64,000 nucleotides of DNA, taken from Glaucostegus cemiculus. Lineage: Eukaryota. The DNA lies in assembly GCA_976551045.1 (NCBI GenBank), contig CDPCPM010000022.1:6200001-6264000 (forward strand). The letters run 5' to 3'. The number at the start of each line of letters is the position of its first letter. Position 1 is the first letter of the stretch. Made by a program: the position numbers and the translations under genes. Below the pieces are notes generated by a model. It was not told where the DNA came from and did no database searches. It was given only the letters and a program-made list of their open reading frames with translations. Positions 1 to 50,107 of this stretch are shown piece by piece.

Positions 1-59
1 TGTGACTCTTTTGCCAGCTTTCAGGATTTTAGTGAGGATGTTTCCTGCTCCCAAGTCCT

Positions 60-1210
60 GGCAGGCTTCTTCAGAAGATCAGAGGTCGAGGTATCCAGGG
101 GAGGTTGGCTGTGTGGATAAGAAATTGGCTTTCCTGTAGAAGGCAGAGGGTTGTGGTGGAGGGAGTGCCCTCGGATTGGAGGGCTGTGACTAGTGGAGTC
201 CCGCAGGGATTAGTTCTGGGGCCTCTACTCTTTGTTATATTCATAGATGATTTGGATGAAGGAGTGGAGGGATGGGTTGGTAAGTTTGTAGATGACACCA
301 AGATCGGTGGTGTGGTAGATAGTGTGGAGGACTGTAGGAGCTTACAGGGGGATATTGATAGGATGCAGAACTGGGCTGACAGGTGGCAGATGGAGTTTAA
401 TCCGGAGAAGTGTGAGGTGGTGCACTTTGGGAGGACAAACTCCAGGACAGAGTATAAGGTAAATGGTAAGGTTCTTGGCAGTGTAGAGGAGCAGAGGGAT
501 CTGGGTGTTCATATCCACAGTTCACTCAAAGTTGCCTCGCAGGTGGATAGGGCTGTTAAGAAGGCTTATGGGATGTTGGCTTTTATAAATAAAGGGAATG
601 AGTTCAAGAGCAGAGAGGTGATGATGCTGCTTTACAAAACTCTAGTTAGGCTGCACTTGGAATATTGTGTTCAGTTCTGGTCGCCACATTATAGGAAGGA
701 TGTGGAGGCGTTGGAGAGGGTGCAGAGGCGATTTACCAGGATGATGCCTGGATTGGAGGGTATGGAATATGAAGAGAGGCTCAAGGTGCTAGGGCTCTAC
801 TCATTAGCGAGGAGGAGGATGAGAGGGGACTTGATAGAGGTGTTTAAGATATTGAGAGGAATAGATAGAGTTAATAGTCAGCGCCTCTTTCCCAGAGCGC
901 AGATGCTAAAGACGAGAGGGCATGCCTTTAAGATAATTGGTGGAAAGTATAGGGGAGATGTCAGAGGGAAGTTTTTCACCCAGAGAGTGGTTGGTGCATG
1001 GAATGCACTGCCTGGGGTGGTAGTGGAGGCAGATACGTTGGACAGGTTTAAGAGATTGTTAGATAAGCACATGGAAGAATGTGGAATAGTAGGATATGAG
1101 GGTGGAAAGAGTTAGTTTGGGAGATGTTTGTAGGATGGCACAGCTTGATGGGCCGAAGGGCCTGTTCTGTGCTGTATTGTTCTATGTTCTTTCTATGTTC
1201 TATGTTCTAT
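60..1210 (+). mobile_element. 5'-truncated CR1-clade LINE (HER1-like), young copy
   Basis: Open RT frame, followed by the CR1 3' UTR motif (gatgggccgaagggcctgttctgtgctgta) and a (GTTCTAT)n tail ending ~1210. Confidence 0.95.
72..1115 (+). CDS. CR1 ORF2 C-terminal half (reverse transcriptase), 5'-truncated, no own start codon
   Basis: Motifs WIRNWL..RRQRV, SGVPQG.VLGPLLF, KFVDDTK (FADD variant), LERVQRRFT, FFTQRVV..WN.LP. The frame extends upstream of the ORF track start (QKIRGRGIQGRL). Confidence 0.9.
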   Translation, partial: QKIRGRGIQGRLAVWIRNWLSCRRQRVVVEGVPSDWRAVTSGVPQGLVLGPLLFVIFIDDLDEGVEGWVGKFVDDTKIGGVVDSVEDCRSLQGDIDRMQNWADRWQMEFNPEKCEVVHFGRTNSRTEYKVNGKVLGSVEEQRDLGVHIHSSLKVASQVDRAVKKAYGMLAFINKGNEFKSREVMMLLYKTLVRLHLEYCVQFWSPHYRKDVEALERVQRRFTRMMPGLEGMEYEERLKVLGLYSLARRRMRGDLIEVFKILRGIDRVNSQRLFPRAQMLKTRGHAFKIIGGKYRGDVRGKFFTQRVVGAWNALPGVVVEADTLDRFKRLLDKHMEECGIVGYEGGKS

Positions 1211-9843: not shown

Positions 9844-10083
9844 TGAAGATTACTTCATTTTGCCTAAGGAATTTGGCAAAAAGGGGTTAGATGCAGTGTC
9901 AGGGGAGCCAAATTTAAGCTGGGAGGGCAGATGATTATTTTAGTCTTTCCTGTGGTTTGAGGAAATTTTGACCCATTCATTGAAATAATCTGAGACCATA
10001 AAGATTATTGTAGCATCAAGAAACTTAGTAACACTGAGAAGCAGCAAGTCATCTAGGATTAAGATGATCACCTAAGATCATCT

Positions 10084-10682
10084 AAGATGGCGGCGCACAT
10101 GGTTGCAGCGGCCTCTCCCGGGTCAGTAGTGCTTTATGTTTTTTGTTAGTCTTTTAGTGTTTTGTGCTGTTTTTTTTCTTGTGTTCTTTGTTCTTGATGT
10201 CTGCGTGCTTGATGTTCGTTCTATGGATTCGTTGTTTGTGCTGACGGCAACAACAGCTCATCGGAGCCCAGCGTGTCGAAGGCCCTGGAGCCTCGTGGTG
10301 GCCTCAGGCTGCGGGCGGGGAGGGGGCTGCCCGGGCCGGAGGTCGTCAGGCTGCGGGGCCGGGAGGTGGAGGCCGTCAGGCTGTGGGGCCGGGACTGCGG
10401 CACCAGAGGCCGTCAGCCGTCGGACTGCGGGGCCGGAGGTGGTCATCGGTTCGGACTGCGGGGCCAAAGGTTGTAGGACTGCGGGCCCAGAGGTGGTCAT
10501 CAGTGCGGGGTGAGGCTGGGGCTGGTTGATGTACCAATGTTTTGATGTTTTTGTCCTGTTGTCTTTTACTGTCTGTAATATCTTTGCACATTGGCCTATG
10601 GAGTATGATATCTCGCCTTCATGTATGCTGGGTGTGTGGGTGTGTGTACATGAAAGTGACAATAAACTGATTCTGATTCTGA
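10084..10682 (+). mobile_element. Non-autonomous composite retroelement: AAGATGGCGGCG head, T-rich segment, GC-rich VNTR, Rex1/Babar-type tail
   Basis: Ends gtgacaataaactgattctgattctga, the same terminus as the Rex LINE at 48025-49699. CpG-rich and lacks RT coding sequence. Confidence 0.75.
10300..10525 (+). repeat. GC-rich VNTR/minisatellite (variable units around GG(A)CTGCGGGGCCGGAGGTCGTCA)
   Basis: About 8 degenerate units visible directly in the sequence. Confidence 0.85.
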
Positions 10683-12125: not shown

Positions 12126-12417
12126 ATCAGAATCAGTTTTATTGTCACAACCATATACATACATAGTATGCATAGGAGCGAGATACTGTCCTCCTCAGGT
12201 GCTCATCCCATAAAATAACATAACAACCAACAGAGACACACATACACACTTGACAGAATAAACATTACAAAACATTAAGCATTAAAAGCTATGGAAGTTA
12301 AAATTAAATTAGTACGCAGATTAAATTAAAAATGGCCGGTAAATAAATAAATAGTTATTAAAGTGAACAGGCTGGTGTCGGGCATTTAAAGTGCTGGTGC
12401 ATTTCTGTGCATCCTAG
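12126..12417 (-). mobile_element. Rex1/Babar LINE, 3' UTR-only copy
   Basis: Nearly identical to 48025-48323, with an (AATCAG)n tail on the + strand. Candidate TSD CAATATC at 12122-12128 and 12423-12429. Confidence 0.93.
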
Positions 12418-34912: not shown

Positions 34913-35290
34913 GATATTGGTATTGGTTTATTATTGTCACTTGTTCCAAGGTACAGTGAAAAGCTTGTCTTACAAACCAATCGTACAGGTCAATTCATTA
35001 CACAGTGCAGTTACATTGGGTTAGTACAGAATGCATTGATGTAGTATGGGTAAAAACAATAAAAGTACAGAGAAAAGTGTCACAGCTACAGAGAAAGTAC
35101 AGTGCAATAAGGTGCAAGGTCACAACAAGGTAGATTGTGAAGTCGTTGTCCATCTCATTGTATAATCAGAATCAGAATCAGAATCAGTTTTATTGTCACA
35201 ACCATATACATACATGGTACGCATAGGAGCGAGATACCGTCCTCCACAGGAACAGTTCAACAGTTCTTATCACAGTGGGGTAGAAGCTTT
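34913..35290 (-). mobile_element. Rex1/Babar 3' UTR (second family) nested in the Tx1 copy
   Basis: gatattggtattggtttattattgtcac tail on +, with an SFYPTVIR-coding end at ~35265-35290. Confidence 0.8.
35164..35250 (-). mobile_element. Young Rex1/Babar 3' tip nested in the older Rex UTR
   Basis: (AATCAG)4, followed by sequence nearly identical to 48040-48105. Confidence 0.92.
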
Positions 35291-39219: not shown

Positions 39220-40593
39220 GTGTGGTCTGAGGTTCGTTCCTGCTTCAAAAGGGCAGAAATCATACCAGTGCCCAAGAAGAGCAGGGGGAGCTGCCTTAAC
39301 AACTATCGCCCGGTAGCACTCACATCTACTGTAATGAAGTGTTTTGAGAGATTGGCTACGGCTAGAATTAACTCCTGCCTGAGCAAGGATCTGGACCTGC
39401 TGCAGTTCGCCTAGAGCTGCAACTGGTCTACAGCAGATGTAATCTCATTGACTCTCCACTCTGCTTTGGAGTGCCTAGACAACAGGAAGACATATGTCAG
39501 GTTGCTGTTTATTGGTTACACTTCAGTGTTCAGTACCATGATCCCCTCAGTATTAAATCAGCAAGCTTCTAAACCTGGGCCTCTGTACCTCCCTCTGTAA
39601 CTGGATCCTCAGATTCCTCATCGGGAGACCACCAAAGTCAGTACAGGTTGGTAATAACATCTCCTCCTCACTGACAATCGACACAGACACACCTTGAGGA
39701 TACATGCTTAGCCCACTGCTCTACTCTCTCTAAACTCATGACTGTCTGGTGAAACACAGCTCAAACACCATCTTTAAATTGTCAGATGACATCACTGTTA
39801 TTGGTAAAATCTCAGATGGGGAGGAGGAGGTGTATACGAGTGAGATAAATCAGCTGGTTCAATGGTGTCACAACAACAACCGCGTGCTCAATATCAGCAA
39901 GACCAAGGCATTAATTGTGGACTTCAGGAAGGGGAGGTCAGGTGGATACACACCAGTCCTCATTGTGGAGTCAGTGGTGGAAAGGGTGAGCAGATTCAAG
40001 GTCCTGGGTGTCACCATCTCAAAGGATCTATCTTGGGCCCAACACATTGATGCAATCACAAAGAAGGCACGACAGTGGCTCTACTTCATTAGGAGTTTGA
40101 GGAGCTTTGGTATGTCAGCAAAAACTCCTGTAAATTTCCATAGATGTACAGTGGAGAACATTCTGACTGGTTGCACCACTGCCTGGTATGGAGGCTCCAA
40201 CGCACAGAATCACAATAGGCTGCTGAGGATTGTAGACTCAGCCAGCTCCATCACTGGAACAAGGACATCTTGAAGAGGTGGTGCCTCAAGAAAGTGGCAT
40301 CCATCACTAAGGACCCTCACCATCTGGGACATGCCCTTTCCTTTTTACTACCATTGAAGAGGAGGCACAGGAGCCTGAAGACCCACACTCAGTGATTTAG
40401 GAACAGCTTCTTCCCCTCCCCCATCAGATTTCTGAATGGCCCATTAACACTACCTCATTATTCTATTTTTGCACTATTTATTTATTTTGTAATTTATAGT
40501 AATTTTATGTCTTTGCATTGTACTGCTGCTGCAAAACAACAAATTTCACATCATTTAAGACAGTACAATAAAACTTATCCTGATTCTATTCTG
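39220..40593 (+). mobile_element. Rex1/Babar LINE, 5'-truncated, with stops and frameshifts
   Basis: IIPVPKK...[37 protein letters not shown]-like and TAWYG motifs, ending in a caataaaac..ctgattct tail. Confidence 0.92.
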
Positions 40594-48024: not shown

Positions 48025-49699
48025 AATCAGAATCAGAATCAGTTTTTATTGTCACAACCATATACATACATAGTATGCATAGGAGCGAGATACCGTCCTC
48101 CTCAGGTGCTCGTCCCATAAAATAACATAACAACCAACAGAGACACACATACACACTTGACAGAATAAACATTACAAAACATTAGACATTAAAAGCTACG
48201 GAAGTTAAAATTAAATTAGTACACAGATTAAATTAAAAATGGCTGGTAAATAAATAAATAGTTATTAAAGTGAACGGGCTGGTGTCGGGTATTTAAAGTG
48301 CTGGTGCATTTCTGTGCACCTAGCATCTCTTAGTGTTAACAAAGGAAGATGGAGGGATGAGAGAGTTTGCAGTTCTGATGGCTTGCGGAAAGAAGCTATT
48401 GTTCAGCCTGGTCGTTCTTGCCCTGATACATTTAAGACTCCTCCCTGATGGCAAAATTGTGAAGAGGTGGTGGGAGGGGTGAGAAGGGTCGGCCATTATG
48501 CTTTTGGTCTTCCTCACACAACGGTCTTTGTATATGTCTGCGAGGGATGGAAGCGAGACACCTATGATCCACTCCGCAGCCCTAACTATCTTCTGGAGGG
48601 ACTTCCGCCCAGCAGCTGAGCAGCTTCCAAACCAAACAGTGATACATTGAGTTAGGATGCTCTCAATGGTCCCCCTATAGAAGGTTTTCATGACGGAGGG
48701 ATGGGGGTACACTTTCCTCAGTCTCCGCAGGAAGTAGAGGCGTTTCTGAGATTTCTTCGTGAGGGCCGTAATGTTAGTAGACCAGGTCAGGTCGTCGGTG
48801 ATGTGCACCCCCAGGAACTTGGTGCTGCGTACTTGTTCCACAGCAGACCCGTTGATGGTCAGCGGGGCGTGCACATGGTGACCCCTCCTAAAATCCACTA
48901 TCATCTCCTTGGTTTTATCCACATTCAAGGAGAGGTTGTTGTCATAGCACCACATGGCTAGTTGTTTCACCTCCTCTCTGTAGTCCGACTCATCGTCATT
49001 CGTGACAAGACCCACCACTGTCGCGTCATCGGCAAATTTAACAATGCGGTTGGAGCTGGATCTGGCCTCACATTCGTGAGTCAACAAGGTGAACAGGAGT
49101 GGACTGAGCACACAACCCTGTGGGGAGCCAGTGCTCAGTGTGATGGTGCTTGAGGTGTTTTCACCAATTTTGACTGACTGCGGCCTGCAAGTTAGAAAAT
49201 CCAGTATCCAGTTGCAGAGAGGAGAGTTAATGCCCAGAGCGCTCAACTTCCTGATTAGCTGTTGCGGGATGATGGCATTGAAAGCGGAGCTGAAGTCGAT
49301 GAATAGCAGTCGGCAGTATGAATCCTTCTTCTCTAAGTGATATAGTGCAGAGTGCATGACAGAGGAGATTGCATCATCGGTGGACCTGTTTGCCCGATAA
49401 GCATACTGATGAGGATCCAAGGATGGGGGGAGGATGGCTCTAATGTGCTTCATAACTAGCCTCTCAAAGCATTTCATGACAATCGGTGTTAGAGCTATGG
49501 GACGGTAGTCATTCAGACACATTGGAGGAGACTTCTTAGGAACAGGTATGATGGTGGCAGATTTTAGGCACTTAGGAACAACAGCCTGCTGTAGGGAGAT
49601 GTTGAAGATGTCAGCCAGTACATCTTTAAGCTGGTCCGCACAGTCCCTAAGTATCCGCCCCGGTATGTTATCCGGTCCCGCAGCCTTCCGAGGGTTAAC
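48025..49699 (-). mobile_element. Young Rex1/Babar LINE, 5'-truncated, with intact RT
   Basis: Uninterrupted frame, CpGs retained, 3' UTR with AATAAA and a (CTGATT)n tail. Confidence 0.96.
48320..49699 (-). CDS. Rex1/Babar reverse transcriptase plus C-terminal domain (460-codon open frame, no endonuclease)
   Basis: [14 protein letters not shown]..., [52 protein letters not shown] and FLGVHI motifs. The frame extends 59 codons upstream of the ORF-track start at 49522. Confidence 0.92.
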
Positions 49700-50107
49700 C
49701 TGTAAAAGGATCTATGTGATAGTGAAACTGACACTCTCACTACTCTCTGCATAAAGGAGTTTCTCAGGCCTCCCATTCTGATTTTTTTTCTGTCTTTTTA
49801 ATACCTTTTATGTTGGGAAATGCCCTATCTGCAATTTTCCAAGGCACTGTGGTAGATGAGAAAACACTCCCTGGAACATGGGAAAATTAGACTTCATATA
49901 CTTAATTAATCTGAAATATAGAAGTCAAAAATCCCCAAAGTAACCTGGAGCTCTATAGATATTGGTAATGACATTCCAAAGATATTCTCCAGATTATCAA
50001 CTCCAATTTCAGCATGGCATATATGGACACTCTATGCTGTTGTATCTTCTGTAAACTTACTAATCAGCTCATCTACATTTTTTGTCCAGATAATTGATAT
50101 ATATATT

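Follow-up and report, generated by a model that had tools for sequence, protein, structure and literature searches.

An ORF-less family with LINE-derived ends and an element-specific VNTR in the genome of Glaucostegus cemiculus

Results

Anatomy of the element and its surroundings

The window, that is, the whole stretch of 64,000 nucleotides (nt) analysed here (Glaucostegus cemiculus, assembly GCA_976551045.1, contig CDPCPM010000022.1, positions 6,200,001 to 6,264,000), contains a non-coding element at 10084-10682 and several pieces of LINEs. The features relevant to the analysis are as follows:

10049-10083, + strand: 5' junction at which the first letters of the element recur as short, scrambled repeats (sequence)
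10084-10094, + strand: YY1-like motif at the 5' end, common to the LINE 5' end (LINE comparison); a predicted Pol II initiation signal
10084-10175, + strand: head, comprising the LINE 5' terminus and the T-rich tract (84-86% over 92 nt versus full-length LINE family A)
10176-10337, + strand: diverged remainder of the LINE 5' UTR, to about LINE nt 270, in which the GC-rich zone begins (profile search)
10338-10499, + strand: element-specific VNTR of seven degenerate units with the core GACTGCGGGGCC (unit decomposition)
10500-10533, + strand: fixed linker 3' of the VNTR, at the place of a longer unique spacer in older subfamilies
10534-10682, + strand: tail from a LINE 3' UTR, nearer to family B than to family A (alignment)
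10614-10658, + strand: predicted tail hairpin (fold prediction)
10661-10666 and 10667-10682, + strand: tail signals, AATAAA and (CTGATT)n, respectively (sequence)
12126-12417, − strand: LINE family A 3' UTR fragment (alignment)
35170-35250, − strand: short LINE family A 3' end fragment (alignment)
48025-49709, − strand: 5'-truncated LINE family A copy with RT and PF09004, the probable partner type (domain and family search)

Read directly from the sequence, the motif AAGATGGC lies at 10084 and the T-rich tract at about 10130-10200, the middle part (10255-10530) has a GC content of 72% and 24 CpG dinucleotides (observed/expected ratio, o/e, 0.73 versus 0.20 for the window), and the tail terminates with AATAAA followed by (CTGATT)n, the last nucleotide being 10682. 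All these parts were found where the original prediction had placed them. It assigned the start to the motif itself, whereas most relatives begin 3-5 nt more 5', with ACCC or GATCC preceding AAGATGG. Similarly, the predicted VNTR is present, although it occupies about 160 nt (10338-10499 by unit decomposition; 10338-10495 as called by Tandem Repeats Finder) rather than 220 nt. Across the family, its units are mostly 14, 23 or 30-31 nt long. The possibility that the VNTR is coding was rejected, because unit lengths of 14, 23 and 31 nt are not divisible by three and Pfam gave no match. The scrambled repeats at the 5' junction were likely made during 5' joining, and short 5' duplications of a similar kind were seen at loci L058 and L048. 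According to the part of the source used here, CAAGATGGC is the YY1 site of mammalian L1 (PMC5381506).

Searches of the element yielded no tRNA, no meaningful Rfam match, with no family near threshold, and no Pfam match in the four frames spanning it, consistent with the predicted lack of both a Pol III head and an RT. A ribozyme or otherwise structured 5' head was likewise rejected (no Rfam match near threshold; fold z +1.1). One might nonetheless take the element for a Pol III SINE whose small-RNA head has gone unrecognised, given that its size and LINE-type tail are SINE-like. However, it has no tRNA, 5S or 7SL head with A and B boxes: no B box was detected, the first 100 nt contain four runs of 4-8 T, which stop Pol III, and the head proved to be a LINE 5' UTR (see below), making a SINE of this type extremely improbable.

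Elsewhere in the window, additional LINE remnants with RT and PF09004 matches lie at 36-1112 (+) and 39734-40270 (+), and the 50 scanned frames, among 124 long ones, contained LINE domains only and no host gene domains. The microsatellite end occurs four times in the window (0.02 expected), and the element tail matches the ends of the LINE fragments at 12, 35 and 48 kb; the predicted similarity to the tail of the 48-kb LINE was recovered at 84% over 44 nt (E = 5e-7 within the window). This LINE belongs to the young family A (40 scored matches at 98%), the full-length copies of which measure ~3.54 kb and have one long frame with AP endonuclease, RT and PF09004 domains. The homologues recovered for its RT are teleost proteins of 60-71% identity that have an identical set of Pfam domains, none of them named Rex1; as these homologues are unnamed, the clade assignment follows from anatomy, on which we take the LINE to be a likely member of Rex1/Babar. 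It has an AP endonuclease before the RT, and its conserved 3' UTR runs into an oligonucleotide repeat, the same arrangement as that given for Rex1 in the part of PMC6274825 consulted.

Copy number, linkage and insertion marks

The element at 10084-10682 belongs to a non-coding family with thousands of copies dispersed through the genome. In the 2.85-Gb genome, an exact 21-nt motif of this tail type was matched 695 times, a 25-nt head motif 1,924 times and a 22-nt motif spanning a junction specific to the youngest subfamily, Z, 2,086 times, all of which are lower bounds, whereas the reversed motifs used as controls gave no match. The objection that the element could be single-copy thus fails. 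A search of the genome with the element returned 4,087 candidates at first look; 40 of them were scored, and all 30 fetched loci carried both head and tail within 566-968 nt. Loci retrieved by the head alone also had the tail in 30/30 cases (a set that overlaps with the first 30 loci). Furthermore, all 40 heads sampled from the head-motif matches (the first 43 listed minus three already-known copies of subfamily M) were ORF-less head-VNTR-tail elements of 472-1,188 nt. In both head sets (30/30 and 40/40), the tail lay within 1.2 kb with no RT between. The linkage of head and tail around a VNTR of variable length, anticipated for a genuine family, therefore holds for all loci fetched.

Among the first 60 of the 695 tail matches in contig order, 16 belonged to full-length copies and 44 to 5'-truncated ones, 34 of these being cut within the head or VNTR and 10 consisting of short tail pieces; seven of the 60 fall into two groups of segmental duplicates. 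Truncation at the 5' end combined with an intact 3' end is a mark of target-primed reverse transcription, and the (CTGATT)n end varies in length among copies. Target site duplications (TSDs) did not exceed chance among 88 full-length copies whose 5' flanks were distinct: at least 7 shared flanking nucleotides were present in 3/88 copies versus 2.5% of shuffled pairs. One copy inserted in a LINE was accompanied by the loss of a few bases and no duplication. Examined for an empty-site allele, contigs of runs X1 and X2, from one sample that is possibly the source, contained no joint across the element, their cover of the flanks being thin.

Subfamilies

Full-length copies were sorted into three groups that come from targeted searches and imply no proportions. 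The oldest, O (31 copies, median 626 nt), has 1-8 VNTR units, a LINE-like A-rich start and a long unique spacer; the middle group, M (22 copies), has 3-27 units and a short spacer; and the young group, Y (35 copies), which includes the copy at 10084-10682, has 6-26 units and has lost the spacer. Along this ladder the VNTR grows, with medians of 4, 8 and 13 units. The surplus of heads over tails led us to a fourth group, Z: of the 40 head matches fetched, 25 were Z and 15 had the old tail. Median non-CpG divergence from the group consensus is 5.2% for O, 2.7% for M, 1.7% for Y (all three computed with six copies that were later moved out of O) and 1.4% for Z. The corresponding values for LINE families A and B, both 2.1%, place their ages within the range of the element subfamilies.

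Z is the youngest and largest subfamily (2,086 junction matches; e.g., L341, L345 and L350-L352, genome G000), with copies mostly of 870-1,190 nt, new unit types and often a 5' T run. At its 3' end, the old tail has lost the 5' arm of the hairpin and continues into some 185 nt of family-A 3' UTR (85-88% to LINE copies), and locus L274 carries a transitional, less decayed double tail. Some Z copies differ from the consensus by 0.2-0.4%, and this group, with its nearly intact CpGs, is the best candidate for current activity.

In head trees built from subsamples of 27 and 31 elements (midpoint root, LINE heads as outgroup), the elements form one lineage apart from all sampled LINE heads (support 100/100), with M, Y and Z nested in O. 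The YY1-like motif, compared at L121-L150, L151-L180, L001-L060 and L341-L380, is preceded by a run of A in both the LINE and O, by GATCC or ACCC in M as well as Y, and by a T-run of 0-57 nt in Z. At L256, L024 and L025, the GT-rich hairpin loop has expanded into long (GT)n microsatellites.

Origin of the parts

All 30 family-A heads fetched run on into LINE sequence. A profile of LINE nt ~140-270, built from 55 family A and B-like copies, matched 30/31 O elements (best E = 3e-11), 5/22 M and 6/35 Y, with 0/88 matches for reversed controls. The head, which had been proposed as a separate module, is therefore the LINE's own 5' UTR, the similarity of 84-86% over its first 92 nt extending as homology to about nt 270. 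At the other end, the old tail of the element scored 102.5 against the family B 3' UTR and 93.5 against that of family A, compared with at most 66 for shuffles. By contrast, the VNTR unit was found in 87/88 elements and in none of 57 LINE 5' regions, and LINE profiles beyond nt ~270 matched the VNTR or spacer in 0/88 elements, so that neither could be traced to the LINEs sampled. Hence, the ends derive from the LINE and the middle is the element's own. Two candidate sources for the middle were rejected: the spacer resembles the LINE N-terminal coding region by eye, yet 0/88 matched at E<0.01, and the only VNTR seeds found within the LINE 5' UTR required up to 7 edits.

These findings bear on two alternatives. 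If the elements were recurrent or one-off internal deletions of LINEs that carry the VNTR in their 5' UTR, both ends would be LINE-derived, as they are. However, the VNTR unit is missing from 57/57 LINE 5' regions, which disposes of the VNTR as an ordinary part of the LINE, and the elements form one clade of nested subfamilies with diagnostic changes, their thousands of copies being dispersed and showing 5' truncations of their own, so that a one-off deletion is refuted as well; we regard this explanation as largely refuted and very improbable. Alternatively, the element could be a true SVA-type composite of unrelated modules, namely, a promoter head, a captured genomic VNTR and a LINE tail. 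The absence of a LINE match for the VNTR and spacer speaks for such an assembly, as does the composite nature of the youngest subfamily, acquired through tail capture, but it is the LINE that supplied both the head and the old tail, the presence of only 1-8 units in the oldest subfamily fits growth inside the element, and there is no Alu-like part, CT-hexamer, SINE-R, poly(A) or TSD. We consider this alternative unlikely. With the head being a LINE 5' UTR, the element should be classed primarily as a SIDE, a bipartite LINE with an internal deletion, and its resemblance to SVA is one of analogy only.

The direct parent is missing, as neither the 60 tails and 40 heads nor the 30 + 30 earlier ones included an autonomous LINE carrying the old tail or the head in its exact form, and the nearest LINE heads are separated by a long branch of about 0.35-0.4 changes per column. 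An RT was located near 5 of the 60 tails, two of which are fused behind a complete LINE tail, with the other three inserted in other LINE fragments. At locus L278, the tail is a variant that falls between those of LINE family B and of the oldest subfamily, and it may lead to the missing parent.

Other repeats were observed during this analysis. One LINE-B fragment is present in many copies that share their 5' breakpoint and their internal insertion; these cluster on contigs C110, C469 and C591 (L225, L228-L231, L233-L235, L238-L240, L242, L243 and L246) and constitute a large segmentally duplicated unit. In the flanks of L006, L009, L022, L025 and L099 there is another abundant tail type, AATAAA + CTGATTCTGA preceded by different upstream sequence, which is a further LINE family or parasite with a common terminal repeat.

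CpG content and methylation

In the head and tail, transitions at CpG sites outnumber those at other C/G sites in O (14.3 vs 4.1%), M (8.6 vs 2.0%) and Y (9.3 vs 1.3%), such that the CpG transition rate is 3.5-7 times the non-CpG rate in the older copies, including the subfamily of the copy at 10084-10682. Within the VNTR units, CpG positions are likewise the most changed. Such decay points to germline methylation, and hence most copies are probably methylated rather than functioning as CpG islands. In Z, the excess is smaller (1.8 vs 0.8%), which can be explained by youth alone, and the eight copies measured satisfy the island definition by sequence (o/e 1.13-1.27, GC about 70%, 458-678 nt). 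The proposal that the element delivers a mini CpG island thus applies, by sequence, to the youngest subfamily, whereas the CpGs of the older copies, Y included, have decayed.

A possible route of mobilisation

The family, in which a GC-rich VNTR specific to the element lies between a LINE 5' UTR and a LINE 3' UTR and which lacks any ORF, is likely transcribed from its inherited internal promoter and copied in trans by the enzyme of the LINE, itself a likely member of Rex1/Babar. Its head and tail are homologous to both ends of the APE- and RT-encoding LINE of the same genome, and the lineage may have been founded by one ancestral internal deletion or end-joining event. Pol II is predicted to initiate at the YY1-like motif, in which case full-length copies would retain their promoter. 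The LINE protein would then recognise the 3' hairpin and (CTGATT)n and prime reverse transcription at the nicked target, a process from which the observed 5' truncations and TSD-less junctions could arise. Over the subfamilies, the VNTR lengthened and gained unit types while the unique spacer shrank, and in the youngest one a broken old hairpin precedes the captured ~185-nt family-A 3' UTR, a tail swap that would give this subfamily the use of the currently abundant LINE. After insertion, most copies would become methylated, judging from the CpG decay.

The predicted hairpin is common to LINE and element and shows one change on both sides of the stem, from C-G in the LINE and O to U-A in the younger subfamilies. 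In an alignment of 10 hand-picked rows, from which the structure itself was derived, 91% of the hairpin cells are paired and the covariation was equalled in 14/500 shuffles; stability was not in excess of shuffles (z −0.35). The two head-to-tail fusions among the 60 tails, directly behind a complete LINE tail (L266:1195-1570 and L277:685-1570, element-oriented), suggest either template jumping or that the (CTGATT)n tail is targeted, but could alternatively represent insertion into a LINE tail. Taken together, the shared hairpin (weakly), the LINE-tail fusions, the tail capture and the similar ages of the LINEs support a machinery common to both, as far as can be judged from sequence.

Discussion

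Our analysis suggests that the element is very probably a Rex1-like SIDE, and probably an undescribed one, in which a VNTR has expanded and the tail has been exchanged. The original description as an SVA-like composite is retained with respect to the dispersed non-autonomous family, the LINE-type tail and the VNTR; the independent head is not. If our interpretation is correct, Rex1 joins the short list of LINE clades that yield ORF-less bipartite parasites, and does so in a vertebrate-type genome. A single genome holds the full series from a short LINE derivative to a VNTR-bearing composite, including a tail swap in progress, so that two questions become testable: whether an SVA-like VNTR is selected or a by-product, and which RNA structure is seen by Rex1-type proteins. 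The young copies, some nearly identical to the consensus, are candidate markers of insertion or length polymorphism and candidate CpG-rich promoters.

The closest kind of known element is represented by SIDEs and other bipartite ORF-less LINEs (RIME, NARTc, R2 SIDE, RTE-N, Vingi-N, Bov-A and the CR1-derived Persaeus). As described in the portions of PMC5786205 and PMC6740152 used here, they share with our element both LINE ends, the lack of an ORF and of a Pol III head, a presumed LINE promoter and trans-mobilisation. The element has the 5' homology to the 5' end of an autonomous LINE and the 3' homology to a LINE 3' UTR with its terminal repeat, carries no EN/RT coding remnant, and has undergone its own amplification, as seen in the dispersed copies, subfamilies and 5' truncation. 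In the sections considered, PMC5786205 traces such elements to RTE, Ingi, Vingi and R2 only, and PMC6740152 calls SIDEs rare, adds an insect CR1 case and does not mention Rex. The element differs from the SIDEs described there in its Rex1-like parent, as opposed to RTE, Ingi, Vingi, R2 or CR1, and in its expanding central VNTR, the word 'tandem' occurring 0 times in the text of PMC6740152 that was covered. Literature searches yielded neither a Rex1-derived SIDE nor a fish VNTR composite, and none is named in the parts of PMC3747384, PMC5499810 and bioRxiv 10.64898/2026.10.27.761883 that we used; the family may already have an entry in Repbase, Dfam or SINEBase, or be in the repeat libraries supplied as supplements to shark and ray genome papers.

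Non-autonomous elements with LINE tails are also represented by SINE2-5_NV, which is paired with Rex1-24_NV in the part of PMC3747384 consulted, and by HE1/HER1 of sharks and rays, but these have tRNA heads. Tail exchange in SINEs (WALLSI, ERE4B and IdioSINE2, from the relevant part of PMC5786205) likewise provides a new LINE 3' end, as does that of the elephant-shark CmiSINE/SacSINE1, in the passages of PMC5499810 considered. Unlike these SINEs, the element has no RNA-derived head, keeps the decayed old tail upstream of the new one, and has a transitional form in the same genome (L274).

The second point of comparison is the group of SVA, LAVA, PVA and FVA, which, in the part of PMC4432496 used, is called hominoid-specific with regard to VNTR composites with an exchangeable 3' module. 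The element lacks the CT-hexamer and Alu-like 5' domain of this group as well as the poly(A) tail and TSD, its units are shorter (14-31 versus 30-50 nt), its partner is not L1 and its ends come from the partner LINE. A more ambitious reading, which we offer tentatively, is a second, independent origin of VNTR composites outside primates, in the form of a Rex1 SIDE with a still active tail-swapped subfamily, more than 2,000 promoter modules of CpG-island size, some of them unmethylated and regulatory, and a functional VNTR; jointly with these, and no less speculatively, the VNTR might have been selected for transcription or mobilisation, as in LAVA. What the element and the SVA group have in common, following the same part of PMC4432496, is a non-autonomous organisation with fixed ends, a GC-rich VNTR in the centre, the units of which differ by subfamily, and a 3' module that can be exchanged, a likeness that we draw as an analogy, with no claim of homology.
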